From NCBI GenBank assembly GCA_965205605.1, contig CBDBHE010000002.1, forward strand, positions 107,944-171,943: a DNA stretch of 64,000 bases, in the 5' to 3' direction. This DNA comes from Spirochaetota bacterium (lineage in GTDB: Bacteria; Spirochaetota; UBA12135; COTS27; CBDBHE01). The first letter of the stretch is position 1; every line of letters starts with the position of its first letter. This document shows, piece by piece, positions 26,578-64,000 of the stretch. A program made the position numbers and the translations under genes. Under the pieces are notes generated by a model, which worked only from the letters and a program-made list of their open reading frames with translations, ran no database searches and was not told where the DNA came from.

Positions 26578-27948
26578 ATGAGTTCATTTAATTTTGATGA
26601 TATTAATGTACTTGATAAGTATACTTCTATTCTAGAAGATATCGATCCAATAAAAACTCAAGGAGTTGTTGTTTCCGTTAAAGGGCTCTTGATTGAGTCA
26701 CTCGGCCCTATCACAAAGGTTGGAGATATTTGTGATATTATTTTAACAAATGGCAAAACTGTTTGTGCAGAAGTGATTGGTTTTAGAAATAACTATATTC
26801 AACTGATGACTATGGGTAATATGGAGGGGATTATTAATGGGAGTAGGGTTATTTCAAAGCATTCTAGTTTATCGATTCCTGTTTCTGAAGAGTTTATTGG
26901 TAGAGTTGTGAATGCTTTAGGTGAGCCAGCAGATGGTCGTTCTTTTAGGTCTCATTCTGAAAAAAGAAGTGTTTTCGCAGAATCTCCAAACTATTATGAG
27001 CGTAAGTCAATAACGGAAGTTTTGTCTGTAGGGGTACAAGCTATTGATGGTCTTTTAACAGTTGGTAAGGGACAAAGAATTGGTATTTTTTCTGGCTCGG
27101 GAGTTGGTAAATCGACTTTATTAGCAATGATAGCAAAAAATACACAAGCCGATATTAATGTAGTGGCTTTAACGGGGGAAAGAGGAAGAGAAGTTAATGA
27201 ATTTATTAAAAATGATCTTGGAGAAGAAGGGATGAAAAAAACAATTGTTGTTGTTGCCACTTCAGATCAATCTCCTCTATCTAAAGTACGCTCTGTTTAT
27301 ACAGCAACTACCATAGCAGAATACTTTAGAGATAAAGGAAAGCATGTTTTGCTAATGATTGATTCTATTACCCGTTTAGCTTTAGCTCAAAGAGAAATCG
27401 GCTCTTCTTTAGGTGAACCTCCAACAACTAGAGCTTATACGCCTTCAGTTTTTAATATTCTTCCTAAAATTACTGAAAGAGCAGGGGTTAGTGATAAAGG
27501 AAGCATTACTGCTTTTTATACAATTTTAAGTGAAGGAGATGATATCGATGAGCCCATTTCGGATTTTATGAGGGGAATTTTAGATGGGCATATTATTCTT
27601 TCTAGAAAAAAAGCCAATAAAAACCATTACCCTTCTATCGAAGTTAACCAATCTATTAGTCGCCTTTCTATTAATGTTTGTTCTGAAAAGCATTATGCCG
27701 CTATTGGAAAAATGAAAGAATATTTGTCAGCCTATGAAGAAGTAGAAGATTTAATTCAAATAGGGGCTTATACTCGAGGAAGTAATCCATCCGCTGATAT
27801 AGCCATTAGCAAAATAGACCAAATTAATCAATTTTTAAAACAATCGATTCATGAAAAACCTTCTTTTGAAGAAAGTGTCGAGCAATTATTAATTATTTTG
27901 GGAATGGAGAAAAATTCAAGTTCTCAACTAGCTTCGCTTTTTGAGTAG
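26578..27948 (+). CDS. fliI: Flagellar export ATPase
   Basis: GSGVGKS Walker A, GERGRE, DSITR, LDGHI. Confidence 0.96.
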   Translation: MSSFNFDDINVLDKYTSILEDIDPIKTQGVVVSVKGLLIESLGPITKVGDICDIILTNGKTVCAEVIGFRNNYIQLMTMGNMEGIINGSRVISKHSSLSIPVSEEFIGRVVNALGEPADGRSFRSHSEKRSVFAESPNYYERKSITEVLSVGVQAIDGLLTVGKGQRIGIFSGSGVGKSTLLAMIAKNTQADINVVALTGERGREVNEFIKNDLGEEGMKKTIVVVATSDQSPLSKVRSVYTATTIAEYFRDKGKHVLLMIDSITRLALAQREIGSSLGEPPTTRAYTPSVFNILPKITERAGVSDKGSITAFYTILSEGDDIDEPISDFMRGILDGHIILSRKKANKNHYPSIEVNQSISRLSINVCSEKHYAAIGKMKEYLSAYEEVEDLIQIGAYTRGSNPSADIAISKIDQINQFLKQSIHEKPSFEESVEQLLIILGMEKNSSSQLASLFE

Positions 27949-42633: not shown

Positions 42634-45627
42634 ATGTTGAAAATTCCTTTTTTTATTTTTTTATTCTTTTGTTTTTCTCTTTTTTCAAAGTCTTTAGAAA
42701 AAACAAATTTATCAGAAGAGCCAATTCTTTTATCTAATTTGCCACCTGATGAAACGATAAAAAAAAAACGTAGTCAAAATCTCATTATTCCCTTTGAAAG
42801 CTTAGAAAATCTTTCAAAAGGAGGTTTTTATATTATCAATGATTTGGATATTAAATCAAAAAAAGAATGGTCTTTTAATTTTAGAGAACTTGTCATTAAT
42901 ATGGTCAAGCAAACTAACCAAGGAGTTCTTAAAAATTTAGCAAATTCTTTAAGTCTTTCTTATTCTAATGATACAGATCTCCTTGCTCTTCAATCAAAAA
43001 TTTTAAACCATCTTGAAGCTTCTGATTCTTCTAAAAAAGAAAGTATTCAAAAGAAAAAAATTTTTCCAAATATTCCCAACTCGGGCATTATTTTAAAGAA
43101 TGCCGATATTTTAGAAAGCTATGGAGAAAAAGTAGAAAACTCTGAAGAAAAAATTATTAAATTATTTGGTAATATAGAAATTTTTTTTCAAGAATCTACT
43201 ATTTATGCTAACCAAGCTATTTTAAATACCTCTTCTAAACAAATTTTTTTTCAAGACCAAGTTTTTTTACATGCTAATCAAATAAATGCTCATGCAGATC
43301 GCTTGATTTTAGATATTGAAAAAAAGACGGGGTTTGCTCTTAAGATTAAAGGAAATATAGATAGTAATTATTACACAGGTGAACTTTTGAAAATTAATAG
43401 TGATGCTCATGTCACTGTTGAAAAAGCTGCCATTACATTTACTTCTAACAAAAATCCTGAATATGTAATTACGGCCGATAGTTTTGACTACTTTGGAAAT
43501 CAAAATATGATTTTAGAAAATATCATTATGTATGTTCATAATCAACCTTTTTTTTATTTTCCGTTTTTTATGCAAGATCCTTTTGGGACAGGTGTTGAGA
43601 TGTATTTTGGAAATACTCGTAGAGAAGGTTATTACTTGTTAATGAGTTTGTCTTTAAAAATTCCTCTGTTCAAGCAGTTGGATTTGGAATTTAATACTTA
43701 TGAAAAAATAGGGACTTACTTTAGAATTAAAAATTCAAATGACTTCTTATGGAGTTATTATGAACTCGATTTTGCTTTTTCAAGATATCTTTTTAATGAA
43801 AATATCCCCTCTGCTACTCTTTTAAGATATACCTTCCATACAACTGATAGGTTAGATCAAGATGTCCGCTATCGTTATAAAATAAATTATAACCATAAAT
43901 TATCTTTACAAGATCCAGACCAGTCTCTTTTGAAAAATACTCTTTATTGGGATATTAATTATAGTTCTGACCCTTTTTTTACTTCTGATTTGGAGAGAAA
44001 TTTACCTAAACTTGATTTATTTGATTTAATTGGCTCTTCTACACAAGAAGGTTTTTATGTGAATACTCCTTATAATAGAAGGCGTTATTTAGTAGAGTAT
44101 CATATTGGTATAAAGCAATTTGGGTTTCAACTAAGAAATCAATGGGAATATGCTAATAGAGAAAATAAATCTGTTTTAGATAAAGCGTCTTATGAAAGAT
44201 GGGATAACGCTTTGGACTATGTGGTTTTACCTTATATGAAATTTACTTATCAAGATACAATTGACCCTGTTCCAAGTGATGATGAAAAGAGAAAAAGAGG
44301 TTTTGGTTATCTAAATCTTAATTATAATCTATCAGCAGATGTTTCTATTAGAGAATATTATGAAAGAGTGCTTCCTTATAATTTTGAAAGAAATGAAAAT
44401 GATTTTAATTTTTTAGGGGCTTTGTCTAGAAGATGGCTTTGGAATACACAAGGAGATGCTTTTCCTATTTTTGATTTTCAATATTTTTCTACTTTTCAAT
44501 TTAATTATAAAAAAAAATGGGGAGGTGAAGAATTAGGAGAGGTTTATATTAATCAAAATAAAGATAACACTTATTATCAAGTGGCGTTTAATCAAGAAGC
44601 TGTCTTTAATTTCCCAACAACAAAAATAAAGAAAAAATGGCATAAAAGTTATGAAATTGACTCTATGTTCCCGACTCTTAATTTCAAATTTAACCACCGT
44701 ATTAAAAAAAGAAGTGTTCTTAAAAATAAAGAAGTCCTTGATTTTAATTTTAGTGAATTTGCAGATCATAATTTTAGAGCTTCTAGTACAGTGGTTTGGC
44801 CTTGGTATGGTTTGTTTTTAATTCCTTATTTAAATGGTTCTCATATAGGAAATGTGACTTTGAATTACAATTTGATTCCTGATCTTCAAGATTCTACTTT
44901 TTCAGATTTTTTTAATGAAAGTCGTTTTATTAATATTAATGGTAGTTGGGTTTATCGAGGAGCTTACCGAAATCTTTGGGTTTATTCTTCAGAGTTACTT
45001 GTTGATTTTTATGACGAAAAAGAAAGCAAAGTTTATACTCAAATAACGCAAAATTCTTTTTCAACTACTTTTAAATTTGAAGATTTTTTTAAAGAAATGA
45101 AAGACTTTTTACTTTTAGATCAATTACACGCTACTTATACTTGGAATTATTACTTTGAAAATATTAATTACCTTTTAGATACGATGACCTTTCAATGGTT
45201 GTTTCGATTTAATGTGGTAAAATATTGGCAATTTGATGTGGCTTTTAATAGTTTAAATAATCAAGCGTTTCTTTATTTTAAAGAAAAATCAAATGAATTT
45301 GGCGTCAATCAAGTCAATTTTTTTCAAGATATTGCTGCTTCACTTGGATTTTTAGGTTCCGATCAATTAAAAAGTAGTCTTTTTAAAATTCAGCGAATTA
45401 ATTTTTCATTGGTTCATGACTTGGAAAGTTGGTATGTGAGGTTAGATTATTCTGTTTATCCGGTTGTGTTGCCCTCTCAATCAGGGGCTTTAAAAGGCTT
45501 TTATTTTGATCAAAAAATTTCTTTTGAAATCAATTTTAAACCAGAACATTATCCTAATAAACAAAATTCTCAATTATTTAGTCCTTGGAATAGAGATGTT
45601 AGGCCATCTGTTTTTGAAAATTTTTAA
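42634..45627 (+). CDS. LPS-assembly protein LptD-like outer membrane protein
   Basis: Signal peptide, beta-jellyroll segment (GNIEIFF...YAN), PFFYFPFF, long aromatic beta-strand-rich C-terminal half with HDL..W. Confidence 0.65.
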   Translation: MLKIPFFIFLFFCFSLFSKSLEKTNLSEEPILLSNLPPDETIKKKRSQNLIIPFESLENLSKGGFYIINDLDIKSKKEWSFNFRELVINMVKQTNQGVLKNLANSLSLSYSNDTDLLALQSKILNHLEASDSSKKESIQKKKIFPNIPNSGIILKNADILESYGEKVENSEEKIIKLFGNIEIFFQESTIYANQAILNTSSKQIFFQDQVFLHANQINAHADRLILDIEKKTGFALKIKGNIDSNYYTGELLKINSDAHVTVEKAAITFTSNKNPEYVITADSFDYFGNQNMILENIIMYVHNQPFFYFPFFMQDPFGTGVEMYFGNTRREGYYLLMSLSLKIPLFKQLDLEFNTYEKIGTYFRIKNSNDFLWSYYELDFAFSRYLFNENIPSATLLRYTFHTTDRLDQDVRYRYKINYNHKLSLQDPDQSLLKNTLYWDINYSSDPFFTSDLERNLPKLDLFDLIGSSTQEGFYVNTPYNRRRYLVEYHIGIKQFGFQLRNQWEYANRENKSVLDKASYERWDNALDYVVLPYMKFTYQDTIDPVPSDDEKRKRGFGYLNLNYNLSADVSIREYYERVLPYNFERNENDFNFLGALSRRWLWNTQGDAFPIFDFQYFSTFQFNYKKKWGGEELGEVYINQNKDNTYYQVAFNQEAVFNFPTTKIKKKWHKSYEIDSMFPTLNFKFNHRIKKRSVLKNKEVLDFNFSEFADHNFRASSTVVWPWYGLFLIPYLNGSHIGNVTLNYNLIPDLQDSTFSDFFNESRFININGSWVYRGAYRNLWVYSSELLVDFYDEKESKVYTQITQNSFSTTFKFEDFFKEMKDFLLLDQLHATYTWNYYFENINYLLDTMTFQWLFRFNVVKYWQFDVAFNSLNNQAFLYFKEKSNEFGVNQVNFFQDIAASLGFLGSDQLKSSLFKIQRINFSLVHDLESWYVRLDYSVYPVVLPSQSGALKGFYFDQKISFEINFKPEHYPNKQNSQLFSPWNRDVRPSVFENF

Positions 45628-48207: not shown

Positions 48208-49297
48208 GTGTCTTCTAAAAAAAAAATCTTAATCGGTAATCGTACTTTCATTTTAGATCAACAAAAAGCAGAAAAAGCTTTTGAGGCTAAGAAAATTATA
48301 AATGGAAAAAAAACAATTACTTTTAATTTACTTCCTTTAAAGTATCCTTGGGCATATGATCTTTATAAAAAAATGAAAGCTAATCATTGGGAACCAGAAG
48401 ATATTCCAATGAATAGAGATATTGAACAGTGGCGTGGTAATGCTATCAGTGATGTTGAAAGATGGATTGTTAAAATAGGGGTTGGTTATTTCTCTGCAGC
48501 AGAGGGGATTGTAGGAGATAATGTTATTCACGTTGTAAGAGAGCTCGTAACTGCTCCAGAATTAAAACTTGTTTTAGGTCGCCATGCTCACGAAGAAAAT
48601 GTTCATTGCAGATTCTCTTTTGTACATGATCTCATCACTTGGCATTAATCCTCACGAAGCTGAAGCCATGTTTGAAGATATCGCTTCCATTGTTAAAAAA
48701 AATGAATTTGTTATGAAAACTTCCCAACAACTTAGAAGAGATTTAGACCTCACTGTTTTAGAAAATAAAAAACTTTTTGCAAAAAATCTTTTTGTTTTTG
48801 GTCAATGTATGGAAGGGACTCAATTTTATGGGCTTTTCGGTATGATTTTAGGTCTTTATCGTCAAAATAAATTCCCAGGAATTGGTCAAATGTTTCGGTA
48901 TACTTTAAGGGATGAGTCTAACCATATCGCTTTATTTAGAGATCTTTTCAATTACCTTGTTGAAGAAAACCCTGAAATCTGGACAAACGACTTTAAACAA
49001 GAATTAACTGATTTAATGTTAGAGGCAATTAAATATGAAAAAGAATTTATTACTGATTGTTTGCCTGTCAATGCAATTGGTCTTGTTGTAGAAGATTTCC
49101 ATCTTTACATTGATTATATTGCAGATAGAAGGCTTGAAAGTGTTAATTTAAAATCAATCCAAGGCAAAATGACAAATCCTTTTCCTTGGCTTGCTGAAAT
49201 GATGGATATTCAAAAAGAACAAAACTTTTTTGAAGGGAGAGTAACAGAGTATCAAAAATCATCTTCTTTAATTATGGATCATGATGATGAATTATGA
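48208..49297 (+). CDS. nrdB: Ribonucleotide reductase beta subunit, class Ic-like (+1 frameshift at ~48606)
   Basis: HWEPE, FSAAEG, EENVH(A)DSL, MEG..FY, RDESNH, NFFEGRVTEY across two ORFs. Confidence 0.92.
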
Positions 49298-49334: not shown

Positions 49335-52300
49335 GTGCATGAACAAAGTAAGGTTTTAAAAAGGGATATAGCTTTAAAAAAGTATATTTCTAGTAGAAAT
49401 GGAGACAAATCAAAGTATCAATGGCATGAAATTTTTACTCAAAATAATACCTCTACTTTAGAAGTTAAAGATTCTTTAATTAAAATTATTCAATACGATC
49501 TTGAAGATGATTATAATTCTTATAAAATAGCTGAGAAAGTTGGTAGGGCTCTTACCAATCTTTATATGTCTCTTTCAAAAAATGAAAATGAGATTTTTAC
49601 TGAAAAAAACAAAGCCTTTGTTTACAAAGTTGTTAAAAAAGTATCTAGTACAATCTCTGAAATGAAGGAGGAGTATCTTAAAAACAATAAAAGTAAAGAA
49701 GGTGTTTCTTTTAGATTAAATATTAAAGATTTAAATTATCTTATAGAAAAGACCCTCGTTGATCTTAATGCTTATGATATTGCAACTAGTTTTCTTTTAG
49801 AACAATCTTTTGAAAAAAAAGAACAAGAAGAATCTCTTAAAGGTAAGGTAAGAGTTATTAGAAGAAACAATCAAATTGTGCCTTGGAATTCTGCCAAAAT
49901 TGAAGTGGCAGTTAGAAAAGCTTTTTTAAGCTTAGAGAAAAATTCTTCACCAGCCGTTGCAATTGTGGAGGCTGTTTGTAAATTTGTTGAGTCTGCAAAA
50001 ATAAAATATATTCATATAGAAGAAATACAAGATTTGGTTCAAGAAGAAATCATGAAAGCCGGTCACTTTAAAGTAGCAGAAAACTACATTATTTATAGAA
50101 CCCAAAGAAACTTTCATCGTGATTTAGAAAAAAAAGACAAGCAAGATTCACCTTCTAAAAAAAGCGCTTCTCAACTTAATTTGGTTTTGATTATTAAGGA
50201 AAATCAAAGTTCTTTTATGTGGGATGGGGAAGATTTGAAAAAACGAATCTCATACGCCATGATGGGGCTTGATTTGTGTTTGAATTTTGAAGAAATAGAA
50301 ATAGAGCTACGGAGATCTATTTTTAATGGGATTACAGAAAAGGATATAAAAAAAACCATTGTTTTAAACGCCAAAGCCTTGATTGAAAAAGATGCTGACT
50401 TTTCTCTTTTTAGTGGTAGAATCTTACTTTCTTATATTTATGAAGAAGTTCTTAATTGGGATATCGTTAGAAATGGAATTGGAAAATTAAAACAATTTCA
50501 TGAAAAATTTTTCAAAAAATACCTTTTAAAAGGAATCGAAATTGGCATTTTAGATGAAAACCTTCTTTCATATAAACTTGAAAAACTGAGTAAAATGTTA
50601 GATCCTACCTCAGATATGGACTTTGATTATTTAGGCATCCAAACCCTTTATGATCGATATCTACTTGTTGATAAAACAAAAAAACAACATAGACGAATTG
50701 AAACCCCTCAAATTTTTTGGATGCGTGTTGCCATGGGGATTTTTCTCAACGAAGAAAAGAAAAAAGAAGATTTTGTTATTGAGCTTTATTCTCTTTATAA
50801 ATCAAGGCTTTTTTGTTCTTCCACACCCACCCTTTTTAACTCAGGGACAAAGCATTCTCAATTATCTTCTTGCTACTTATATTGGGTTGATGATTCTATT
50901 GAAGGAATTATGCAAAGAGGAATTGCAGAAAATGCTTATCTTTCAAAATGGGCTGGTGGGCTTGGTGGTAGTTGGACATCGGTTAGAGGGGTTGGTTCTT
51001 ATATTAATGGGACTAATGGAGAAAGTCAGGGAGTGATTCCTTTTTTAAAGCTTCATAATGATCAGCTTGTTGCTGTTAATCAAGGAGGAAAAAGAAAGGG
51101 TTCTGGCTGTGTTTATTTAGAAATTTGGCATAATGATTTAATGGAATTTTTAGAACTTAGAAGAAATACTGGTGATGATAGAAGGCGAACTCATGATATG
51201 AATACAGCAAATTGGATACCAGATTTATTTATGAAACGTCTTGAACTTAGAAAAAATTGGACTTTGTTTCGTTCTAATGAAGTTCTTGATTTGCATCATA
51301 TTTATGGAGAAAAATTTGAAAAACGTTATGTGGAATATGAAAAAAAAGCAGAAAAAGGGCTTATCTATAGCAAAGTAATGCCCGCTATCGAAATCTGGAA
51401 AAAAATATTACAAATGCTTTTTGAGACAGGACATCCTTGGATTACCTTTAAAGATGCTTGTAATATCAGAAACCCACAAAGTCATAAAGGGGTGATTCAT
51501 AGTTCTAATTTATGTACCGAAATTACCTTAAATACAGGTAAAGATGAAACAGCTGTTTGTAATCTTGGTTCGATTGTTATTGACAACCATTTAGATGAAT
51601 TTGGAAATATTGAGCATAAAAAACTTAAAGAAACAATTAGTATTGCTATTAGGGCTCTTGATAATATTATTGATATTAATTTTTATCCTACTAAACCAGC
51701 TAAAAATTCTAATGAAAGACATCGACCTATTGGTTTAGGTGCTATGGGGCTTCAGAATGCTCTTTATAAAAAAAATATTTCCTTTGCTTCTAAAGAAGCA
51801 ATTGAATTTAATGATGAATTTTTTGAATCGCTTTGTTATTATGCGTATGAAGCTTCAAGTGAATTAGCTAAAGAAAAAGGAGCTTACTCCTCATATAAGG
51901 GTTCAAAATGGTCTAAAGGGCTGCTCCCTTTAGATACAGCTAAAATTTTAGAAGAAAAAAGGCAAATTTCAATAGGAATTCCTCTTGAAAAAATCAAAAT
52001 GAATTGGGATAATCTTAAAGAAAAAATTAAAAAACATGGAATGAGAAATAGTAATGTAGTTGCCATTGCACCAACAGCAACCATCTCTAACATTATGAAA
52101 ACAACTCCTTGTATTGAACCCACTTATAAAAATCTTTTTGTCAAAAGCAATCTTAGTGGAGATTTTATTGTTTTAAACTCTTATTTAGTAAAAGATTTAA
52201 AAAAAATAGGTTTGTGGAATCAAGAAATGATTGATAATTTAAAGTATTTTGATGGAGAATTAGAAGATATTGATATTATTCCAGAAAAAATTAAAAATAA

Positions 52301-52607
52301 ATATGTCACTTCTTTTTTAATAGACTACAATTTTATTATTGATGCTGCTGCTAGAAGACAAAAATGGATTGATCAATCTCAATCTTTAAATCTTTGGTTA
52401 AAGCATCCTAGTATTAAAATCATGTCTCATATGTATCGAGCGGCATGGAAAAAAGGAATTAAAACAACTTATTATTTACGGACTTTAGGAGCCTCTAATA
52501 TTGAAAAAGCAACGATTGCACTTAAAACTCAAAGAGAAGGGGAAGAAAAAGAAGCGAATAAAAATGTTTGTTCTTTAGATGATGATCCTTGTGAAGTTTG
52601 TCAATAA
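49335..52607 (+). CDS. nrdA: Ribonucleotide reductase alpha subunit with N-terminal extension and ATP cones
   Basis: VIRRN...KI ATP cone, TPTLFNSG, SSCYL, SNLCTEI, APTATIS, KTTYY, C-terminal CEVC. Confidence 0.96.
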   Translation: MHEQSKVLKRDIALKKYISSRNGDKSKYQWHEIFTQNNTSTLEVKDSLIKIIQYDLEDDYNSYKIAEKVGRALTNLYMSLSKNENEIFTEKNKAFVYKVVKKVSSTISEMKEEYLKNNKSKEGVSFRLNIKDLNYLIEKTLVDLNAYDIATSFLLEQSFEKKEQEESLKGKVRVIRRNNQIVPWNSAKIEVAVRKAFLSLEKNSSPAVAIVEAVCKFVESAKIKYIHIEEIQDLVQEEIMKAGHFKVAENYIIYRTQRNFHRDLEKKDKQDSPSKKSASQLNLVLIIKENQSSFMWDGEDLKKRISYAMMGLDLCLNFEEIEIELRRSIFNGITEKDIKKTIVLNAKALIEKDADFSLFSGRILLSYIYEEVLNWDIVRNGIGKLKQFHEKFFKKYLLKGIEIGILDENLLSYKLEKLSKMLDPTSDMDFDYLGIQTLYDRYLLVDKTKKQHRRIETPQIFWMRVAMGIFLNEEKKKEDFVIELYSLYKSRLFCSSTPTLFNSGTKHSQLSSCYLYWVDDSIEGIMQRGIAENAYLSKWAGGLGGSWTSVRGVGSYINGTNGESQGVIPFLKLHNDQLVAVNQGGKRKGSGCVYLEIWHNDLMEFLELRRNTGDDRRRTHDMNTANWIPDLFMKRLELRKNWTLFRSNEVLDLHHIYGEKFEKRYVEYEKKAEKGLIYSKVMPAIEIWKKILQMLFETGHPWITFKDACNIRNPQSHKGVIHSSNLCTEITLNTGKDETAVCNLGSIVIDNHLDEFGNIEHKKLKETISIAIRALDNIIDINFYPTKPAKNSNERHRPIGLGAMGLQNALYKKNISFASKEAIEFNDEFFESLCYYAYEASSELAKEKGAYSSYKGSKWSKGLLPLDTAKILEEKRQISIGIPLEKIKMNWDNLKEKIKKHGMRNSNVVAIAPTATISNIMKTTPCIEPTYKNLFVKSNLSGDFIVLNSYLVKDLKKIGLWNQEMIDNLKYFDGELEDIDIIPEKIKNKYVTSFLIDYNFIIDAAARRQKWIDQSQSLNLWLKHPSIKIMSHMYRAAWKKGIKTTYYLRTLGASNIEKATIALKTQREGEEKEANKNVCSLDDDPCEVCQ

Positions 52608-52628
52608 ACACAATTAGTTTTAAAAAAA

Positions 52629-52702
52629 TAGGACTGAGAGGAGTCGAACCTCCGACACATGGTTTAGGAAACCACTGCTCTATCCAACTGAGCTACAGCC
52701 CC
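52629..52702 (-). tRNA. tRNA-Arg(CCT)
   Basis: Reverse complement GGGGCTG TAGCTCAGTTGGATAGAGC..gtggt-TTCCTAA-accat..GGTTCGACTCC..CAGTCCT A; CCA not encoded. Confidence 0.93.
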
Positions 52703-52919
52703 AATAGCCAATAATTTTACTCTTTTTTTTTAAAAAATAAAAAAAAAAATGAAATTTTAACTGTTTTTTTAGATAATTAGAATTATACTACTTAAAATAT
52801 CTTTGTGTAATTTATGGAAATAATAAATTTTTCGTTTAACTCTTATGAAGTTTGTTTGTTTTTGTAATCGTTTTCATAAATTAGATTTATTTTTTAAAAA
52901 AGAAGGCAGGTAGTAACTA

Positions 52920-55900
52920 ATGAGGAAAAAATTAAAAATTAAGAGTTTATTAATAAAAAAATCGTATTTTTTTAAAATTTTACTTAAAACAATATTTTTA
53001 ACAAAATTAACAAAAATAGCATTGATTATTTTTGGTATGTTACTTTTAAGTTATGCAGCAGTGACACCACTTGCACAAGGAGTTTTTGAAGCAGAATTAA
53101 CAAATTTACTACCAGCAAGGAATGTTGTTATTAGGAGTTACTTAAAAGGGACTGATTTTGTTCCTGGTCAAGACTGGACTTATAGGGAAATTGGGGATGG
53201 TTTTAATCCTCACCAAAATCTTATTGAAAAGAGTGGTGCGACTCCTATTGTTCAGACTACTTTTGGGCCTAGGCTAGATGGGACTCAGTATTTTGAAGTC
53301 ATGCCTAGCTTAAATAGTGGTACATTGGATAGTCTTGGTATTCCTAGTACTGATGCTGATGTTAATAGCTATCGACTTTTAGGGTCTTCTACTGTTGGCG
53401 ATGATACTGATGATATTGATGTTAATGATATTGAACACACGACTTTAATGCATTTTTATTATGAAGGGGGGAGTGTTATTATTTCTGTATTAAACTCAGG
53501 TGGTGGTCGTCTTACATATGCGGATCACTTTGGACGTAATATAAGTAATAATGATAGGGGATACGCGGGGCTTCAAAAGAAAGAAAATGATAGAGCTCCT
53601 GCAACGAGTTTTACTATAGCTTCTACTTGGCTTGAAGATATTAGTTCTTTGATTAGCACTGGAAGGATAAGAGGGAGTTTAGTGCTAGAGGCAGGTAACT
53701 TTTATACCCTTTGTATTGTAAAAAAGTTCCCTCATACGACTGCTTTTTTGATTAAGACTACTAATGAAAATACGTCGAAGGATGAAGGAGGTGCTCCGTT
53801 CCCTGAGGGTGTTTATGGTCTTTATAACAGAGATGGGTCAGATAACCCCTGGAGATTTAGGGATGCTTTAAGAAATGTTACAGGTCTTGGGGGGCCAGGT
53901 TATCAACAGGTTGGGGATAATTTTAAAGGAATTATTTACCAAGTTTTGAGTTTGAAAGGTGCTTATACTTTGGAGGAACTTGGACAAATTGACTCTTATA
54001 TAAAAGAAAATCAGTATGGAAAGATCACAAGTATTTTTTCTAATAATGCAGCAGGTTCGATTGCTACTATAAGAGGAGAGAGGTTTGGTGCTTCGAGTGC
54101 TATAGGTCGTAATGTTTTATTTGATTCGAGAAAAATTACAGCGGAAACTTGGTCTGATACAGAAGTGTCATTTAGAATCCCAAATGACGCTCAAGTAGGA
54201 ATCCACAAAATTAGCGTACAAACTTCTTTTGCTGCGGGGAGTGAAATCGATTTTACAGTAGCTCCACAACCAGCATCACTTGGTGAAGAGATTCTTGAAG
54301 GAGAATTAACAAGTTTACTATCAGGAAGAAGTGTTGTTATTAGGAGTTACTTAAAAGGGACTGATTTTGTTCCTGGTCAAAACTGGCCTTATAGGGAAAC
54401 TGGGGATGGTTTTAATCCTTACCAAAGACTTATTGAAAAGAGTGGTACGACTCCTATTGCTCAGACTACTTTTGGTCCTAGGCTAGATGGGACTCAGTAT
54501 TTTGAAGTCACTCCTAGCCTTAACACTAATAGATTGGATAGTCTTGGTATTCCTAGTACTGATGCTGATGTTGATAGCTATCGACTTTTAGGGTCTTCTG
54601 CTAGCGGCGATTATAATGATATTCAACACACGACTTTAATGCATTTTTATTATGAAGGGGGAAGTGTTATTCTTTCTGTATTAGACTCAGGTGGTGGTCG
54701 TCTTACATATGCGGATCACTTTGGGCAAACTGGCCTAAGTACTTTTGATGGGGGATACGCAGGGCTTCAAAAGAAAGAAAATGATAGAGCTCCTGCAACG
54801 AGTTTTACTATAGCTTCTACTCGGGTTGAAAATATTTCTGGTTCGCGTTACAGTGGAAGGATAAGAGGGGGTTTAGTGCTAGAGGCAGGTAACTTTTATA
54901 CCCTTTGTATTGTAAAAAAGTTCCCTCATACGACTGCTTTTTTGATTAAAACTACTAATGCAGCAAATATAGCGACAGTGGAAGGTAATCCTCCGTTCCC
55001 TGAGGGTGTTTATGGTCTTTATAACACCGATACCGGCTGGAGATTTAGGAGTGCTTTAAACAATATTATAGGTCTTGGGGGGCCAGGTTATCAACAGCTT
55101 GGGGATAATTTTAAAGGAATTATTTACCAAGTTTTGAGTTTGAAAGGTGCTTATACTTTGGAGGAACTTGGACAAATTGACTCTTATATAAAAGAAAATC
55201 AATATTCAAAGATCACAAATATTTTTTCTGATGGAGGTGGTGATCCGCTTCCAAGTTCGATTGCTACTATAAGAGGAGAGAGGTTTGGTGCTTCGAGTGC
55301 TATAGGTCGTAATGTTTTATTTGATTCGAGAAAAATTACAGCGGAAACTTGGTCTGATACAGAAGTGTCATTTAGAATCCCAAGTGATGCTCAAGCAGGA
55401 ACGCACAAAGTTAGTGTAGAAACTTCTTTTGCTCCGGGGAATGAAATCGATTTTACAGTAGTTCCACAACCAGCATCACTTGGTGAAAATACTTTTAAAA
55501 CAGAATTAGAAAATTTACTACCAGGAAGAAGTAATGTTGTTATTAGGAATTACTTAAAAGGGACTGATTTTGTTCTTGGTCAAAATTGGCCTTATAGGGA
55601 AACTGGGGATGGTTTTAATCCTCACCAAAGACTTATTGAAAGGAGTGGTGCGACTCCTATTGCTCAGACTACTTTTGGGCCTAGGCTAGATGGGACTCAG
55701 TATTTTGAAGTTATTCCTAGCTTAAATAGTGGTAGATTGAATAGTCTTGGTATTCCTATAAATAATGATGTTGATAGCTATCGACTTTTAGGGTCTTCTG
55801 CTAGCGGTGTTAATAATATTGAACACACGACTTTAATGCATTTTTATTATGAAGGGGGGAGTGTTATTCTTTCTGTATTAGACTCAGGTGGTGGTCGTCT

Positions 55901-58900
55901 TACATATGCGGATCACTTTGGGCAAACTGGCGGAAATGCTCCAACTCAGTTTGATAGGGGATACGCAGGGCTTCAAAAGAAAGAAAATGATAGAGCTCCT
56001 GCAACGAGTTTTACTATAGCTACTGCTACGAATGACAATTTTGGTTCGATTTACAGTGGAAAGATAAGAGGGAGTTTAGTGCTAGAGGCAGGTAACTTTT
56101 ATACCCTTTGTATTGTAAAAAAAGTCCCTCATACGACTGCTTTTTTGATTAAAACTACTAATGCAGCAAATATAGCGACAGTGGAAGGTAATCCTCCGTT
56201 CCCTGAGGGTGTTTATGGTCTTTATAATTTCGATAACGGCAACTGGAGATTTTCGGATGCTTTAAGAAATGTTACAGGTCTTGGGGGGCCAGGTTATCAA
56301 CAGGTTGGGGATAATTTTAAAGGAATTATTTACCAAGTTTTGAGTTTGAAAGGTGCTTATACTTTGGAGGAACTTGGACAAATTGACTCTTATATAAAAG
56401 AAAATCAATATTCAAAGATCACAAGTATTTTTTCTGATGGAGGTACTCATCCACTTTCTGCTTCTAATGCAGGTTCGGTTGCTACTATAAGAGGAGAGAG
56501 GTTTGGTGCTTCGAGTGCTATAGGTCGTAATGTTTTATTTGATTCGAGAAAAATTACAGCGGAAACTTGGTCTGATACAGAAGTGTCATTTAGAATCCCA
56601 AGTGATGCTCAAGCAGGAACGCACAAAGTTAGTGTAGAAACTTCTTTTGCTCCGGGGAATGAAATCGATTTTACAGTAGTTCCACAACCAGCATCACTTG
56701 GTGAAAATACTTTTAAAACAGAATTAGAAAATTTACTACCAGGAAGAAGTAATGTTGTTATTAGGAATTACTTAAAAGGGACTGATTTTGTTCTTGGTCA
56801 AAATTGGCCTTATAGGGAAACTGGGGATGGTTTTAATCCTCACCAAAGACTTATTGAAAGGAGTGGTGCGACTCCTATTGCTCAGACTACTTTTGGGCCT
56901 AGGCTAGATGGGACTCAGTATTTTGAAGTTATTCCTAGCTTAAATAGTGGTAGATTGAATAGTCTTGGTATTCCTATAAATAATGATGTTGATAGCTATC
57001 GACTTTTAGGGTCTTCTGCTAGCGGTGTTAATAATATTGAACACACGACTTTAATGCATTTTTATTATGAAGGGGGGAGTGTTATTCTTTCTGTATTAGA
57101 CTCAGGTGGTGGTCGTCTTACATATGCGGATCACTTTGGGCAAACTGGCGGAAATGCTCCAACTCAGTTTGATAGGGGATACGCAGGGCTTCAAAAGAAA
57201 GAAAATGATAGAGCTCCTGCAACGAGTTTTACTATAGCTACTGCTACGAGTGACAATTTTGGTTCGATTTACAGTGGAAAGATAAGAGGGAGTTTAGTGC
57301 TAGAGGCAGGTAACTTTTATACCCTTTGTATTGTAAAAAAAGTCCCTCATACGACTGCTTTTTTGATTAAAACTACTAATGCAGCAAATATAGCGACAGT
57401 GGAAGGTAATCCTCCGTTCCCTGAGGGTGTTTATGGTCTTTATAATTTCGATAACGGCAACTGGAGATTTTCGGATGCTTTAAGAAATGTTACAGGTCTT
57501 GGGGGGCCAGGTTATCAACAGGTTGGGGATAATTTTAAAGGAATTATTTACCAAGTTTTGAGTTTGAAAGGTGCTTATACTTTGGAGGAACTTGGACAAA
57601 TTGACTCTTATATAAAAGAAAATCAATATTCAAAGATCACAAGTATTTTTTCTGATGGAGGTACTCATCCACTTTCTGCTTCTAATGCAGGTTCGGTTGC
57701 TACTATAAGAGGAGAGAGGTTTGGTGCTTCGAGTGCTATAGGTCGTAATGTTTTATTTGATTCGAGAAAAATTACAGCGGAAACTTGGTCTGATACAGAA
57801 GTGTTATTTAGAATCCCAAGTGATGCTCAAGCAGGAACGCACAAAGTTAGTGTAGAAACTTCTTTTGCTCCGGGGAATGAAATCGATTTTACAGTAATTG
57901 TTACTACTCCACCTCCACCTCCTCCACCCCCACCTCTAGAATCACCATCACTTGGTGAAGAGATTCTTGAAGGAGAATTAACAAATTTACTACCAGGAAG
58001 GAATGTTGTTATTAGGAATTACTTAAAAGGGACTGATTTTGTTCCTGGTCGAAACTGGCCTTATAGGGAAACTGGGGATGGTTTTAATCCTCACCAAAGA
58101 CTTATTGAAAGGAGTGGTGCGACTCCTATTGCTCAGACTACTTTTGGGCCTAGGCTAGATGGGACTCAGTATTTTGAAGTCATGCCTAGCCTCAGGACTA
58201 ATGAATTGGATAGTCTTGGTATTCCTAGTACTGATGCTGATGTTAATAGCTATCGACTTTTAGGGTCTTCTGCTGGCGATGTTAATGATATTGAACACAC
58301 GACTTTAATGCATTTTTACTATGAAGGGGGGAGTGTTATTCTTTCTGTATTAGACTCAGGTGGTGGTCGTCTTACATATGCGGATCACTTTGGGCAAACT
58401 GGCCTAAGTGATTTTGATGGGGGATACGCAGGGCTTCAAAAGAAAGAAAATGATAGAGCTCCTGCAACGAGTTTTACTATAGCTTCTACTTGGCTTGAAG
58501 ATATTAGTCCTTCGACTAACAGTGGAAAGATAAGAGGGAGTTTAGTGCTAGAGGCAGGTAACTTTTATACCCTTTGTATTGTAAAAAAGATCCCTCATAC
58601 GACTGCTTTTTTGATTAAAACTACTAATGCAAATAATGGTCTTGATAACAACGATACAGATCCAAACGCCCAGGGATTTAGGGATGCTTTAAGAAATGTT
58701 ACAGGTCTTGGGGGGCCAGGTTATCAACAGATTGGGGATAATTTTAAAGGAATTATTTACCAAGTTTTGAGTTTGAAAGGTATTTATACTCCGGAGGAAC
58801 TTGAACAAATTGACTCTTATATAAAAGAAAATCAGTATGGAAAGATTACAAGTATTTTTTCTGATGGAGGTGGTGATCCGCTTATTTCTTCTAATAATGC

Positions 58901-59889
58901 AGGTTCGGTTGCTACTATAAGAGGAGAGAGGTTTGGTGCTTCGAGTGCTATAGGTCGTAATGTTTTATTTGATTCGAGAAAAATTACAGCGGAAACTTGG
59001 TCTGATACAGAAGTGTCATTTAGAATCCCAAATGACGCTCAAGTAGGAATCCACAAAATTAGCGTAGAAACTTCTTTTGCTCCGGGGAATGAAATCGATT
59101 TTACAGTAGTTCCATTTTCATTTGAGCTTCCACCAGGTAACCACCCTAGTGATGGTCTCGAAGGGCTCCCTGCAGCAACTGCAGATACTTTTAAATTGGG
59201 TGTTTCAAAAGGTATTGTAGTTTATAAAAATACTTTAAAGGATGAAAACTCTTTTATTTCTAGAAAAGGTTTTGTCAGAGTAACCCTTGATGGAACATCA
59301 CTTACTAAAACTGATACAATTAGAATTTTAGATGGTTCTAGACTTGTTTATGTACCTATTATTGAAAGAGTAGTGGGAAATTTAAATGATTTTGAAAATA
59401 ATAGAAATTATCATAAAGTTATTTTTAGAATTTATGAAAATAATTTAAAGGATTTTGCTGAAGGGGCTTATGATATTTCTTATCAAAGTTCTTTATCTAG
59501 AGAAACCATTCTTTATAAAAATGGTTTTTTTGTCGTTGATCAAAAAGGTGAGGGCGGTCAAAATAACAAAATTTCTTTTTTAAATGAATTGGTAGCACCA
59601 AGAGATGTTTTCTATAATTTAAAAAAAAATGCTAAACTCTACACGGTACCAATTGCACTTAAAGAAATATCTGTAGCAGAGACTACTGTTTGGATTGTTG
59701 ATATTAATGGTAAAAAACTTGCTAAAGTTCTTGAGACGACCCTATATGAAGGTATCAATAACCTTGAAATTGACTTTATTAATAATATGAAAGGAAAAAG
59801 GAGGTTATTTAGGGATTAACTTTCTTTTTATAGAAGCTTTAACAGATTTAGGACGTATTACTTCTTATACTCCAATTGTTCTTCATTAA
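52920..59889 (+). CDS. Giant exported repeat protein: 5 x (LamG/ConA-like jellyroll + IPT/TIG) and a C-terminal sorting-like domain (probable +1 frameshift near 59795-59799)
   Basis: N-terminal signal/TM. Each unit ends with FKGIIYQVLSLKGAYTLEELGQIDSYI (LamG-like tail) then ITSI..GS.ATIRGERFG..VLF..WSDTEVSFRIP (IPT/TIG). The ORF-track stop is 59819, but the likely natural end is GGYLGINFLFIEAL...PIVLH* at 59889. Confidence 0.85.
53085..59110 (+). repeat. Five tandem ~1.2-kb intragenic repeats
   Basis: Anchor ttaaaagggactgatttt at 53142, 54351, 55554, 56772 and 58023 (periods 1209, 1203, 1218, 1251 bp; all multiples of 3). Confidence 0.97.
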
Positions 59890-59923: not shown

Positions 59924-60704
59924 TTAAGTATTAGTTTGATTTAAGAAGTTTGGAATTTTTTTTAAATCTATCCAAGTTTCTTTTTTAAGTAAAGGATTAA
60001 TTGTTATTTCTTTTGGGTGGTGAGTGAAAACAATGGGTGTTTTTCTGTATGATAATATCTTTCCTCTTATTGTATTAAATTTAATTTCTTCTTCTTTTAT
60101 TGAAAACAAAAAACGATAAGTTATTTGACCAAATGCAATAATAAATTTTATTTTTGAATATTTAATTTCTTCTTCTAAATAATTTTTACAAACTTCCACA
60201 TCGCTTAAGTCATACGGAAGCTCTGTTGTAGAGGCACACTTTATAGCTGTTGTTATGTAACAGTCTTCATATTTAATATTCAGTGCTTTTAGTATTTTTT
60301 TTAATAAAATTCCATTTTTATCGGAAAAACAAAAACCTTGAATTTGATCATAAAAACTTGCTTGATCAGAGATAATCATAATATTTTTATTTTCATTACT
60401 TCCAAAATTTACAAAATTCTTTCTTTTTAAACATAAAAAGCATTTTTCGCATTTTTTTACTTTCTCTCTTAAAATATCAATTTTTGTTTTTTTTTCTTCA
60501 CTATCACTAGACAATATATTTTTTCTTACTTCAATTTTTTTTTATCATTGCTTCTTTATTATTGTAAGAATAATAGATCTTTTTATAAAAAGAAGAAACT
60601 GGGCTTAATAAATTTTTGATGAAAAGGGTTTCATTTAAGTAATAATGAATTTTTTTATAAATTAAATAATCTTTCTTAGGGATAATTAGCTTGTTATTTG
60701 TCAT
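59924..60704 (-). CDS. Uracil-DNA glycosylase family 4-like protein (degenerate motifs; probable frameshift in T-run ~60535-60543)
   Basis: CEKCFLC, IKC and VEVC Fe-S cysteines, THHP. An upstream ORF from ATG 60704 joins the 59924..60514 ORF if one base is removed. Confidence 0.75.
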
Positions 60705-61350
60705 AATTAATTTCTATTGCAAGGCTTAGTGTTAAATAAGAGTATGTTTCAAAAAAATGAAAATTAAACATCTGGTAAAAATTAATATTTAAAAAAGTAT
60801 TTTTATTCAGTTTAAATCCATATTTAATACCAGGTGAAAAAAAATAAGTAAATTTGTTTTCATAGTTTGCTTTTAAAATAATATTGCTTCCATTCTCTTT
60901 ACTTATTTTTCTAAAAATCTGTTTAATTAAAAAGCCTGAAGAAAGAACTAAAGAAAATTTATTTTTGTTGTAGGGTTTTTGATGAAATGTCATTAAAAAA
61001 CCAATAGGTATTTGAGTCTCTTCTAAAGAATTGATTTTATTATCTTGAGCTGATTCTTTGCTTTCTAAATATAACCCTCTTTTGAAATAACCTAGTAGAA
61101 TCCCTATCGAATTTTTAGGTTGATAAAGATAATGACTTGAAAATAAAAAATTATAATTAGGTAAATTTATAACGTCTTCATACACAATATCATTATTTTG
61201 ATCTATTTTATTTTTAATAATAGAAGTGAAAGAAAGACCGGTTTCAATTTCCCCTATATAAGAAGGGATAGAATAAGTGTTTTTAGAGGTAAAAAAAAAA
61301 ATTAAATAAAATACCTTTAGAAAAAAATAAAATTTAATTTTTTTTTGCAA
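60694..61350 (-). CDS. Outer-membrane beta-barrel-like hypothetical protein
   Basis: Signal peptide, alternating aromatic beta-strands, terminal LSLAIEINY strand. Confidence 0.5.
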   Translation of the reverse strand: MQKKIKFYFFLKVFYLIFFFTSKNTYSIPSYIGEIETGLSFTSIIKNKIDQNNDIVYEDVINLPNYNFLFSSHYLYQPKNSIGILLGYFKRGLYLESKESAQDNKINSLEETQIPIGFLMTFHQKPYNKNKFSLVLSSGFLIKQIFRKISKENGSNIILKANYENKFTYFFSPGIKYGFKLNKNTFLNINFYQMFNFHFFETYSYLTLSLAIEINYDK

Positions 61351-62416: not shown

Positions 62417-62447
62417 AAGATAGAAATTCTAAAAAATTTATTATTAA

Positions 62448-62485
62448 TAAGCAATTTTATCGTAAATAAGCAATTTTATCGTAAA
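62448..62485. repeat. Perfect 19-bp tandem duplication (taagcaattttatcgtaaa)x2 in a divergent promoter region
   Basis: Directly visible at 62448-62466 and 62467-62485. Confidence 0.85.
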
Positions 62486-62596: not shown

Positions 62597-64000
62597 ATGC
62601 TATTAAAGAAAAATTTGAAAAAACATTATATTTTTTGCTTAATTTTAATTCTTTTTATTAAACTAGAGCCTTTGTTTTCTCAAGAAGTTTCGGATAGCAA
62701 ATTAACTACTTTAATAGGGAAAGATGTTGTTATTAGAAGTTATTTAAAAGGGGGTGATTTTGTTTCTGGTCAAACTTGGGATTATAATAAAACAGGCGAT
62801 GGTTTTTTGCCTGCTAGAGGTCTTGTTGAAAAGAGTGGTGCGGTTCCTATCACTCAAACTTCTCTGGGGCCTAGACTAGATGGGACTCAGTATCTTTCAA
62901 TTAGAGAGACCTTTGTTGGTCTTAGTGGGGCTACTGCTGATGCTCATCGACTTTTAATTCGCAGAACTATTTCACCTGAGTCTGATACTGAATACACGAT
63001 TTTAGTGCATTTTTATTATGAAGGGGGGGGTATTATTTTTTCTACATTACGAGAAGAAATAGGACTTGATTCATATTCGGACCTAATTTCTTCAGACTCA
63101 CTTAATAGTGAGGCATATTCGGGGTTTCAAAAGAGAGCAGGAGGAGGAGGAAATTTTATTACAGTTCCTCTTAGGGATGTAAACCCAAGAGGATCAATAG
63201 CGCTAGAGACAGATACCTTATATACTCTTTGTCTTGTAAAAAAACACCCTACAATAGATGTTTTTTTGATTAAAAGTACTAATGAAAGTACTTTGCATTA
63301 TAGGGATCCTTATTCTACATGGAGGTTTGGACCTATAATTTCAAATATAACAGGTCTTGGAGGGCCAGGTTACCAAGATATTGGGGAAAATTTCAAAGGG
63401 GTTATTTACCAAGTTTTGAGTTTGAAAGGTGTTTATACTGTGGGTGAACTTGAACAAATTGACTCTTATATAAAAGAAAATCAGTATTCAAAGATCACAA
63501 GTATTTTTTCTGATGGAGGAGGTAACCCAATTGTTGCTTCTAATGCAGGTTCGCTTGTTGTTATAAAAGGACGGAATTTTGGTGTTGAAAGGGATGTGGG
63601 TCGTAGTGTTTTACTTGGTTCGAGAGAAGTTGTAGCGGAAGCTTGGTCTGATACAGAAGTGTCATTTAGAATCCCAGTTGACACTCAAGTAGGAATTTTT
63701 AATGTTAATGTAAAAACTTCTTTTGTTGAAGGAACTCCGATAGCTTTTAAAGTAGCTAATACAAGAATTTATTTACCTTTACCTAATTCTTCTGAAGAAT
63801 TTATTAATGATGAAACATTGGTTTTTCCAAGAGCCATTAGGCCTTCAAAAGACTTGAATTCCGGTATAGGTCGTACTTATTTAAAAATAGACGAACTTAA
63901 GAAAGGAGAGAAGGTTACAGCGGTTGTTTATAATGATAGGGGTAAAGAGATAAAAATTCTTTTGAATAATGAAGAATTTCTATTTGGTACTTCTACAATT
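62597..64000 (+). CDS. Single-unit paralog of the giant LamG-like/IPT repeat protein (3' end runs off the window)
   Basis: Missing from the ORF track because it has no stop. My translation: MLLKKNLKKHYIFCLILILF signal, VVIRSYLKG, GPRLDGTQY, HFYYEGG, GLGGPGYQ, FKGVIYQVLSLKG, WSDTEVSFRIP; open for 468 codons. Confidence 0.9.
   Translation, partial: MLLKKNLKKHYIFCLILILFIKLEPLFSQEVSDSKLTTLIGKDVVIRSYLKGGDFVSGQTWDYNKTGDGFLPARGLVEKSGAVPITQTSLGPRLDGTQYLSIRETFVGLSGATADAHRLLIRRTISPESDTEYTILVHFYYEGGGIIFSTLREEIGLDSYSDLISSDSLNSEAYSGFQKRAGGGGNFITVPLRDVNPRGSIALETDTLYTLCLVKKHPTIDVFLIKSTNESTLHYRDPYSTWRFGPIISNITGLGGPGYQDIGENFKGVIYQVLSLKGVYTVGELEQIDSYIKENQYSKITSIFSDGGGNPIVASNAGSLVVIKGRNFGVERDVGRSVLLGSREVVAEAWSDTEVSFRIPVDTQVGIFNVNVKTSFVEGTPIAFKVANTRIYLPLPNSSEEFINDETLVFPRAIRPSKDLNSGIGRTYLKIDELKKGEKVTAVVYNDRGKEIKILLNNEEFLFGTSTI

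Follow-up and report, generated by a model that had tools for sequence, protein, structure and literature searches.

Several exported proteins of spirochetes vary in discrete windows on a constant framework, such as Borrelia vlsE with its silent cassettes, Treponema pallidum tprK, and Treponema denticola TvpA, the target of a diversity-generating retroelement (DGR). We deal here with a gene for a giant protein, P0001, from a member of the Spirochaetota (GenBank assembly GCA_965205605.1), located in a stretch of 64,000 nucleotides (nt) of contig CBDBHE010000002.1 (positions 107,944 to 171,943 of the forward strand). This whole stretch is called the window below, and coordinates refer to it unless another contig is named. 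P0001 encodes five near-identical units of about 400 amino acids (aa). The closest parallels are found in two groups of tandem-repeat proteins. Periscope Proteins (SasG/Aap, Rib, Sgo_0707 SHIRT, Esp, CdrA) are surface proteins with tandem domains of high identity, and in the account given by Whelan et al. (2021, PMC8201768) adjacent SHIRT domains are 82-100% identical, intragenic recombination is the proposed driver, and the repeats form an inert stalk, with a C-terminal wall anchor, that projects a separate N-terminal binding domain. The fungal HNWD genes (het-d, het-e, het-r), as presented by Chevanne et al. (2010, PMC2873952), encode WD-repeat proteins of allorecognition.

P0001 is best read as one more form of the surface proteins, already known, with tandem repeats of high identity, here built on an orphan domain. 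With moderate confidence, we regard it as a multivalent binding protein, restricted to its lineage and exported through Sec, of a spirochete that is uncultured and probably associated with animals, and as evolving by duplication and gene conversion; it is probably secreted and glycan-binding. The original prediction, made from the sequence, described a surface protein with constant frameworks and antibody-like hypervariable loops that would belong to a receptor-diversification or antigenic-variation system; what it observed was confirmed, and its interpretation was partly supported. Its gene end at 59889 lies 70 nt too far, the stop being at 59819. Each unit (U1 to U5) consists of an N-domain of ca. 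300 aa followed by an IPT/TIG domain (TIG), and a paralog, P0002, is found downstream:

52920..59819, forward strand: coding sequence of P0001, 2299 aa, stop included in the coordinates
52920..53078, forward strand: leader, aa 1-53, with a basic stretch, a hydrophobic segment IALIIFGMLLLSYAAV, and then PLAQG (from the translation)
53079..54287, forward strand: U1, aa 54-456; N-domain 53106-54017, TIG 54018-54263; best Pfam TIG stretch aa 369-438
54288..55487, forward strand: U2, aa 457-856; N-domain 54315-55205, TIG 55206-55463
55488..56705, forward strand: U3, aa 857-1262; N-domain 55515-56411, TIG 56412-56681
56706..57959, forward strand: U4, aa 1263-1680; near-copy of U3, ending in a poly-proline linker, IVTTPPPPPPPPPLESPS, unique to this unit
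57907..57936, forward strand: 15-nt tandem repeat CTCCACCCCCACCTC, two copies, coding for the poly-proline linker between U4 and U5
57960..59114, forward strand: U5, aa 1681-2065; 15-codon deletion in variable window V5
59115..59816, forward strand: C-terminal domain, 234 aa, unique and without detectable relatives
62597..64000, forward strand: paralog P0002, truncated at the contig end; leader, one module and the first portion of a C-terminal part

The P0001 leader would act as a Sec signal peptide or anchor; no lipobox cysteine follows its hydrophobic segment in the translation, and the similar leader of P0002 ends in PLFSQ. Searches of P0001 with Pfam, NCBIfam and PHROGs revealed neither an anchor nor a sorting domain of a known kind, and the first unit comes directly after the leader. 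The C-terminal 234 aa gave no significant match in Pfam (one line, E=0.13), NCBIfam or PHROGs and no homologue among longer proteins, and they are unlike the partial C-terminus of P0002. The overall GC content of P0001 is raised (0.37-0.39) because its composition is rich in G, T, P and R, while GC at third codon positions (GC3; 0.21-0.22 vs a genome mean of 0.222) indicates native codon usage. Horizontal transfer and GC-biased conversion are ruled out as sources of the raised GC, since GC3 equals the genome mean.

Like vlsE, tprK and TvpA, P0001 is a spirochete gene for a predicted exported protein with variation in discrete windows on a constant framework. Unlike them, it comes with no silent cassettes, reverse transcriptase or template repeat in the draft genome and with no A-specific pattern, and its variants stand side by side in one polypeptide. 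In anatomy it would come closest to the Periscope Proteins as described in PMC8201768, with which it shares a putatively exported tandem array of folded domains of high identity (81-99%; 89.6-99.5% at the nucleotide level). In contrast to those proteins, it has neither a separate head nor any anchor of a known type, the putative binding domain being part of each repeated module; of the variation in repeat number described between strains for Periscope Proteins, P0001 offers one hint, a single contig of depth 5 from sequencing run X2. Its evolutionary logic appears closest to that of the HNWD genes, in which, according to PMC2873952, a homogenised scaffold also bears shuffled variable positions. 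The HNWD products, however, are eukaryotic cytoplasmic STAND/NLR proteins whose 42-aa WD repeats form one propeller and whose instability was measured with mutant collections, whereas P0001 is a bacterial, presumably secreted protein made of autonomous two-domain modules of 400 aa. A literature search with supplements outside its scope rendered no description of a hypervariable adhesin architecture combining LamG and TIG and, among the matches listed, none of LamG with a spirochete in tandem-repeat surface proteins.

The five units are in-register direct repeats with a spacing of 1188-1254 nt, and they are as nearly identical as first reported: pairwise identities amount to 89.6-93.1% (nt) and 81-88% (aa), U3/U4 apart. 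This last pair is 99.5% (nt) and 98.8% (aa) identical, its bodies differing by just two substitutions, N190S (inside variable window V4) and S379L (in the TIG). Exact identity extends over at most 568 and 566 nt in U3/U4, 263 nt in U2/U3, and 153-158 nt in three other pairs. The proposal that this scaffold is homogenised and recombining was borne out by incompatible site patterns. Among U1, U2, U3 and U5, the 29 informative sites fall in three mutually incompatible groupings (18, 7 and 4 sites), with a Hudson-Kaplan minimum (Rm) of 11, that is, at least 11 recombination events among units. The patterns run in tracts, with 11 switches of 28 possible, a number as low as this being reached in 313 of 10,000 permutations. 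Loop variants are common to non-adjacent units; U5, for instance, shares its V1 and V3 variants with U2 and its V4 and TIG variants with U1. The density of synonymous differences per site is 0.072 in the framework and 0.273 in the variable windows, 3.8 times higher (Fisher p=2e-5), and homogenisation of the framework is therefore of later date than that of the windows; amino-acid constraint does not by itself account for the contrast between the two.

P0002 lies 3 kb downstream of the array, and its module, with much shorter loops, is 46-52% identical (aa) to the units. Exact runs of 30-42 nt are shared between P0002 and the array, and alignment columns 286-330 are 89-96% identical at the nucleotide level, as against 37-59% in the neighbouring loops. 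The synonymous divergence (dS) of P0002 from the units is only 0.34-0.42; in similarly identical paralog pairs of the genome it is above 1. A 19-nt tandem repeat (2.1 copies) is located upstream of P0002, at 62446-62485.

Differences between the five units, counted as minimal nucleotide events, amount to 205. They are over-dispersed along the unit (10-codon bins; index 3.84, chi2 153.6, df 40, p=3e-15), in agreement with the claim that variation is concentrated in fixed windows: 147 of the 205 events fall in eight windows, the N-terminal linker and V1 to V7, which make up 120 of 403 columns. All variable strings read in the original prediction are present in the P0001 translation, namely TVGDDTDDIDVND, ASGDYND, ASGVNN and AGDVND; RNISNNDR, QTGLSTFDG, QTGGNAPTQFDR and QTGLSDFDG; and STWLEDISSLIST, STRVENISGSRYS, TATNDNFGSIYS and STWLEDISPSTNS. 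Every indel between units keeps the frame, as had been noted. The number of distinct versions of each variable window is only four, U3 and U4 being all but identical. The windows are located as follows, with nonsynonymous (N) and synonymous (S) events:

53301-53366 (U1), 55713-55775 (U3), 56931-56993 (U4) and 58182-58247 (U5), forward strand: V1, after YFEV; 16 N to 5 S
53391-53435 (U1), 55800-55823 (U3), 57018-57041 (U4) and 58272-58295 (U5), forward strand: V2, after LLGSS; 7 N to 2 S, 8 gap columns
54510..54626 (U2), forward strand: V1 and V2 of this unit, after YFEV and after LLGSS
54726..54752 (U2), 53535-53558 (U1), 55923-55958 (U3), 57141-57176 (U4) and 58395-58421 (U5), forward strand: V3, after YADHFG; 12 N to 1 S, 4 gap columns
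54816..54860 (U2), 53622-53666 (U1), 56022-56063 (U3), 57240-57281 (U4) and 58485-58529 (U5), forward strand: V4, after SFTIA; 25 N to 0 S
53766-53816 (U1), 56163-56216 (U3), 57381-57434 (U4) and 58629-58637 (U5), forward strand: V5, after IKTTN; 11 N to 3 S, 16 gap columns
53823-53882 (U1), 56223-56276 (U3), 57441-57494 (U4) and 58644-58703 (U5), forward strand: V6, after GLYN; 27 N to 7 S
54960..55070 (U2), forward strand: V5 and V6 of this unit, after IKTTN and after GLYN
55230..55262 (U2), 54042-54062 (U1), 56436-56480 (U3), 57654-57698 (U4) and 58863-58910 (U5), forward strand: V7, first TIG loop, after ITSIFS; 15 N to 3 S, 11 gap columns

V7 sits inside the Pfam TIG match and not in a linker, and an insert of six codons in the V1/V2 region of U1 is a local GAT-rich duplication. 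In an alignment of P0002 with the units, the fixed windows coincide with the indels of the paralog. This provides an independent definition of loops, as columns within 3 of an indel in P0002, for which event density is 0.81 per column vs 0.34 elsewhere (p=2.7e-10). The windows are indel-tolerant segments, probably surface loops.

The assignment of the second domain of each unit to IPT/TIG was confirmed: Pfam PF01833 matches five stretches, one per unit, with 99.8 bits against a cut-off of 20.9 (E=8.6e-29), and the TIG part of U2 was modelled by AlphaFold2 as all-beta, with confidence scores (pLDDT) of 70-86. The N-domain, on the other hand, has no match in NCBIfam or PHROGs, and a sequence search of the PDB gave nothing below E=0.35. 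A search with the unit profile of 1.84 billion representative proteins rendered 261 matches, and the 150 that were listed, self apart, align through the TIG only (profile positions ~300-405). Word-indexed searches at near and shorter lengths returned P0001 itself or nothing, and its 90% cluster has one member. The N-domain was found in 0 of 40 relatives; a contig scan gave 72 pattern matches, none of them confirmed; and 400 other genomes of the phylum yielded only one marginal match (E=0.0086), at chance level. The N-domain is thus an orphan, with no detectable relatives in the databases and genomes searched, and a candidate for a new, or extremely divergent, lectin-like family.

The LamG/ConA-like fold first suggested for the N-domain found partial support, in language-model look-alikes and a weak C-terminal profile alignment, with no match to a hidden Markov model. 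In ESM-Atlas, 5 of 30 hits for U2 are neighbours in LamG_3 clusters and, for the paralog, 26 of 30 named hits are LamG_3, with neighbour scores of 0.96-0.97. When a five-row N-domain profile was aligned by hhalign with 29 LamG_3 domains of the phylum, only the last 27-29 columns were confident, placing FKGIIYQV...YTLEEL on the family pattern F.G.iDev.iyn.a.s..Ei, and the alignment, extended at low confidence, follows the conserved LamG_3 strands (FDG..Y.., ..T...W.., W.H.a) in the same order. The part of the N-domain that aligns with the LamG_3 profile (PF13385) is a C-terminal motif, F-x-G-x-I-x-x-V...T-x-x-E-[IL]; the two differ in length, the N-domain being about twice as long as the model (~300 vs 151 positions). 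A fixed-spacing expression for this motif matches only 4 of the 29 LamG_3 members and is not diagnostic; an open reading frame of contig C7 that matches it proved unrelated. LamG_3 is common in the phylum, with matches in 30 of 61 sampled genomes; the genome carrying P0001 is one of the 61 and has none. A LamG/ConA-like jelly roll may be taken as a lead only.

As regards selection, the 168 N to 37 S found among all events exceed a neutral expectation of 75.2% N derived from the observed mutation spectrum (p=0.013). By codon position the events number 81, 76 and 48, third positions varying least. The ratio of nonsynonymous to synonymous divergence (dN/dS, or omega; NG86 method) is 1.3-1.7 between units and 0.9-1.2 between units and P0002, at dS 0.34-0.42. 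In 13 other paralog pairs of the genome, used as a control, omega is 0.22-0.60, including 0.42 at dS 0.13 for a pair of GH95 genes, with the exception of a PL8 pair discussed below (1.15). These results indicate that the family is evolving fast across the whole module under relaxed or diversifying selection.

The following course of events can be proposed. Each module would consist of a beta-rich domain of ~300 aa, whose fold is most likely a LamG/ConA-like jelly roll with many elaborations, and of an IPT/TIG domain as a spacer. The array would have arisen by recent tandem duplication, that of U3/U4 being very recent, and unequal crossing-over together with short-tract gene conversion, among modules and with P0002, would keep it alike. 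The same process would move loop variants between modules, giving each its own combination, in a family with dN/dS of about 1 or above whose differences and in-frame indels pile up in indel-tolerant segments. We infer a location at the cell surface, exposure of the loops, binding of a ligand (a glycan), and a selective benefit, if any, of the differences between modules. Should the modules prove to bind ligands, P0001 would be a repeat protein whose binding domain, in place of a passive stalk, has been amplified and is held similar by recombination while the loops differ. An uncultured spirochete with a small genome and with enzymes that degrade host glycans would in this way gain, by simple genetic means, adhesion that is both multivalent and multi-specific. 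What the evidence shows is evolution that is rapid and involves recombination, as is often the case for exported repeat proteins, and no new mechanism emerges from it. The domain of ~300 aa, without detectable relatives even in databases of very large size and refractory to structure prediction, is worth a structure determination.

Several results weigh against this interpretation, the first of them concerning the fold. Three N-domains compared with Pfam gave no family even at E<=10, and PF13385 has 0 matches in the whole genome at E<=10 (gathering score 27.6 bits). The hhalign comparison reached a score of 17.8 with P=0.05 and a probability of 1%. AlphaFold2 with a five-row alignment gave a pLDDT of 38.5 for the whole of U2, its N-domain being of low confidence, and of 29.4 for the N-domain of P0002; in both models the N-domain is at pLDDT 23-40, too low for fold assignment. 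With regard to location, neither a lipobox nor an anchor or sorting domain of a known kind was found, so that P0001 might reside in the periplasm or be released. The number and order of the units, moreover, rest on one deposited metagenome assembly.

The remaining points concern selection, and they are also those on which a neutral origin would be argued, namely that the array is a by-product of recent amplification and relaxed constraint, the windows being change-tolerant segments or ends of conversion tracts and the differences between modules having no function. Raised dN/dS is expected for very young duplicates, and one pair of PL8 genes in this genome, 96% identical, has an omega of 1.15. 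The scattered changes in the framework are mostly nonsynonymous, as originally noted (41 N to 14 S), and this ratio fits neutrality (p=0.88). An excess of dN/dS in the loops, the check that had been proposed for the idea of hypervariable loops, was found in the windows defined post hoc, with 125 N to 22 S (p=0.0026) and, away from gaps, 67 N to 6 S (p=0.0003), a result that is biased because the windows were picked on amino-acid variability; it was not found in the loops defined by the paralog, in which 72 N to 17 S equals the 82 N to 18 S outside (excess p=0.13, not significant). Positive selection specific to the loops may be suggested by the former figures. Against a neutral by-product stand the absence of in-frame stops over the 6.9 kb of P0001 in a genome of ~29% GC, the other two forward frames having 139 and 294, and the fact that all seven indel-bearing windows keep the frame. 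P0002, at dS ~0.4, is likewise intact up to the end of the contig, and many framework residues are invariant across the units and P0002. We therefore consider a purely neutral origin rather unlikely.

It can also be the case that P0001, beyond being a recombining multivalent binding protein, is a self-contained combinatorial diversifier, in which the five modules and P0002 would be mutual donors and a few loop cassettes would be reshuffled, through short-tract gene conversion, on an orphan lectin-like scaffold. If so, cells or strains would display different binding specificities or epitopes, and the array would correspond, in bacteria and outside the cell, to the HNWD repeat system of fungi, on a domain family without known relatives. 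We hold this possibility to be doubtful.

More improbable is a dedicated diversification or antigenic-variation system, the antibody-like arrangement of the original prediction, in which loop cassettes would be actively and frequently exchanged or mutated for receptor specificity or immune evasion. The sharing of loop variants by non-adjacent units with an Rm of 11, the post-hoc excess of N events, V4 with its 25 N to 0 S in particular, and two variant contigs that hint at variants in the population would fit such a system. However, no reverse transcriptase (RVT_1) was found in the 91%-complete genome, and A is the majority base at 50 of the 205 variable sites vs 28.9% of bases, with no over-representation; on these two grounds P0001 does not qualify as a DGR target. 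The further cassettes that had been anticipated were not found either, a tblastn search of the eight contigs with one unit yielding the five units and one intact paralog only (the genome is a draft, and unassembled copies are possible), so that cassette-based antigenic variation of the vls, tprK or pilE type, for which there are no silent donors in these contigs, is not supported. No recombinase is present among the neighbours adjoining P0001, and scans for upstream inverted repeats, promoters and terminators gave A/T-rich low-complexity matches only, with no convincing invertible promoter. Further points against such a system are the limit of four variants per window and the lack of N excess in the independently defined loops. 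The variation between modules is genome-encoded, and nothing indicates a dedicated enzymatic or cassette-switching machine.

The two variant contigs come from a comparison with public sequencing runs, which consists of fragmentary contigs of three runs that leave parts of the array without cover, none spanning it. One of them, from run X2 (408 nt, depth 5), joins 56633 to 59064 in register, from a U3-type TIG to the tail of U5, skipping exactly two units (2430 nt) with a shared stretch of 51 nt at the join; the second differs from the assembly at 57341-57342. Both are single contigs of depth 5-10, and they may be real shorter or recombinant alleles or graph paths across the repeats. In all three runs, the bin at 57813-58045, with the CTCCACCCCCACCTC repeat, has the highest summed contig depth (18.7, 39.1 and 16.4), and the depth reached by some 31-nt contigs, as high as 120, points to an occurrence of this low-complexity word in other organisms of the samples as well.

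Finally, that the array is an assembly artefact, with strain variants of a gene of one or two modules chained together or a spurious U3/U4 duplication, is very improbable. In favour of an artefact are the eight-contig metagenome draft, the contig end inside P0002 and the broken contigs of the runs, whose pieces over the array measure 30-400 nt; of the 49 pieces placed from run X1, 26 fit two places. Against it, the frame is continuous through four junctions, the junctions differ (PQPASLGE linkers vs a unique poly-proline linker), U5 runs into the unique C-terminal domain, 45 of the 49 run X1 pieces are at least 99% identical to the array, and the resolution of 1.2-kb copies with exact runs of 566-568 nt suggests that long reads underlie the assembly.

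The organism had been taken for a host-associated spirochete. That it is a spirochete is supported by three FlaA genes and a FlcA-like protein, and host association is plausible to the extent that duplicated PL8 and GH95 genes fit a host-glycan niche. The PL8 lyase pair, with 96% identical proteins, lies on different contigs (C6:17506-20040 and C7, ~105.8 kb), as does the pair of GH95 alpha-fucosidases, with 89% identical proteins and dS 0.13 (C4:50776-53847 and C6, ~103.5 kb). The genome, a metagenome-derived draft of 1.69 Mb, is the sole member of its family among the genomes compared. A comparison of FliI gave 80 loci from many phyla, all of them 49-56% identical, and carried no taxonomic information. 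NrdA (49335-52607, forward strand) is 45-46% identical to its counterparts in four genomes of the same order, aligning only from residue ~160-208 on, and this divergence indicates that the lineage is isolated.

The neighbours of P0001 are nrdB, nrdA, a tRNA gene, a UDG-family gene, an unknown gene and an aminotransferase gene, the tRNA being located as follows:

52628..52703, reverse strand: tRNA-Arg(CCT), between nrdA and P0001, 216 nt upstream of the start codon

The intergenic region before the P0001 start codon contains runs of T9-10 and A11 (approximately 52722-52750). The small subunit of ribonucleotide reductase appears split into overlapping open reading frames (48208-48648 and 48584-49297, forward strand), the second of which matches positions 100-274 only of the 281 of the Pfam profile, and this may be a frameshift. 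Two other reading frames, at 42634-45627 (forward strand, 997 aa) and 60694-61350 (reverse strand, 218 aa), have no match in Pfam or NCBIfam. The window also holds a flagellar cluster with fliF (22808-24517), fliI (26578-27948) and the FlcA-like gene (28044-30668).

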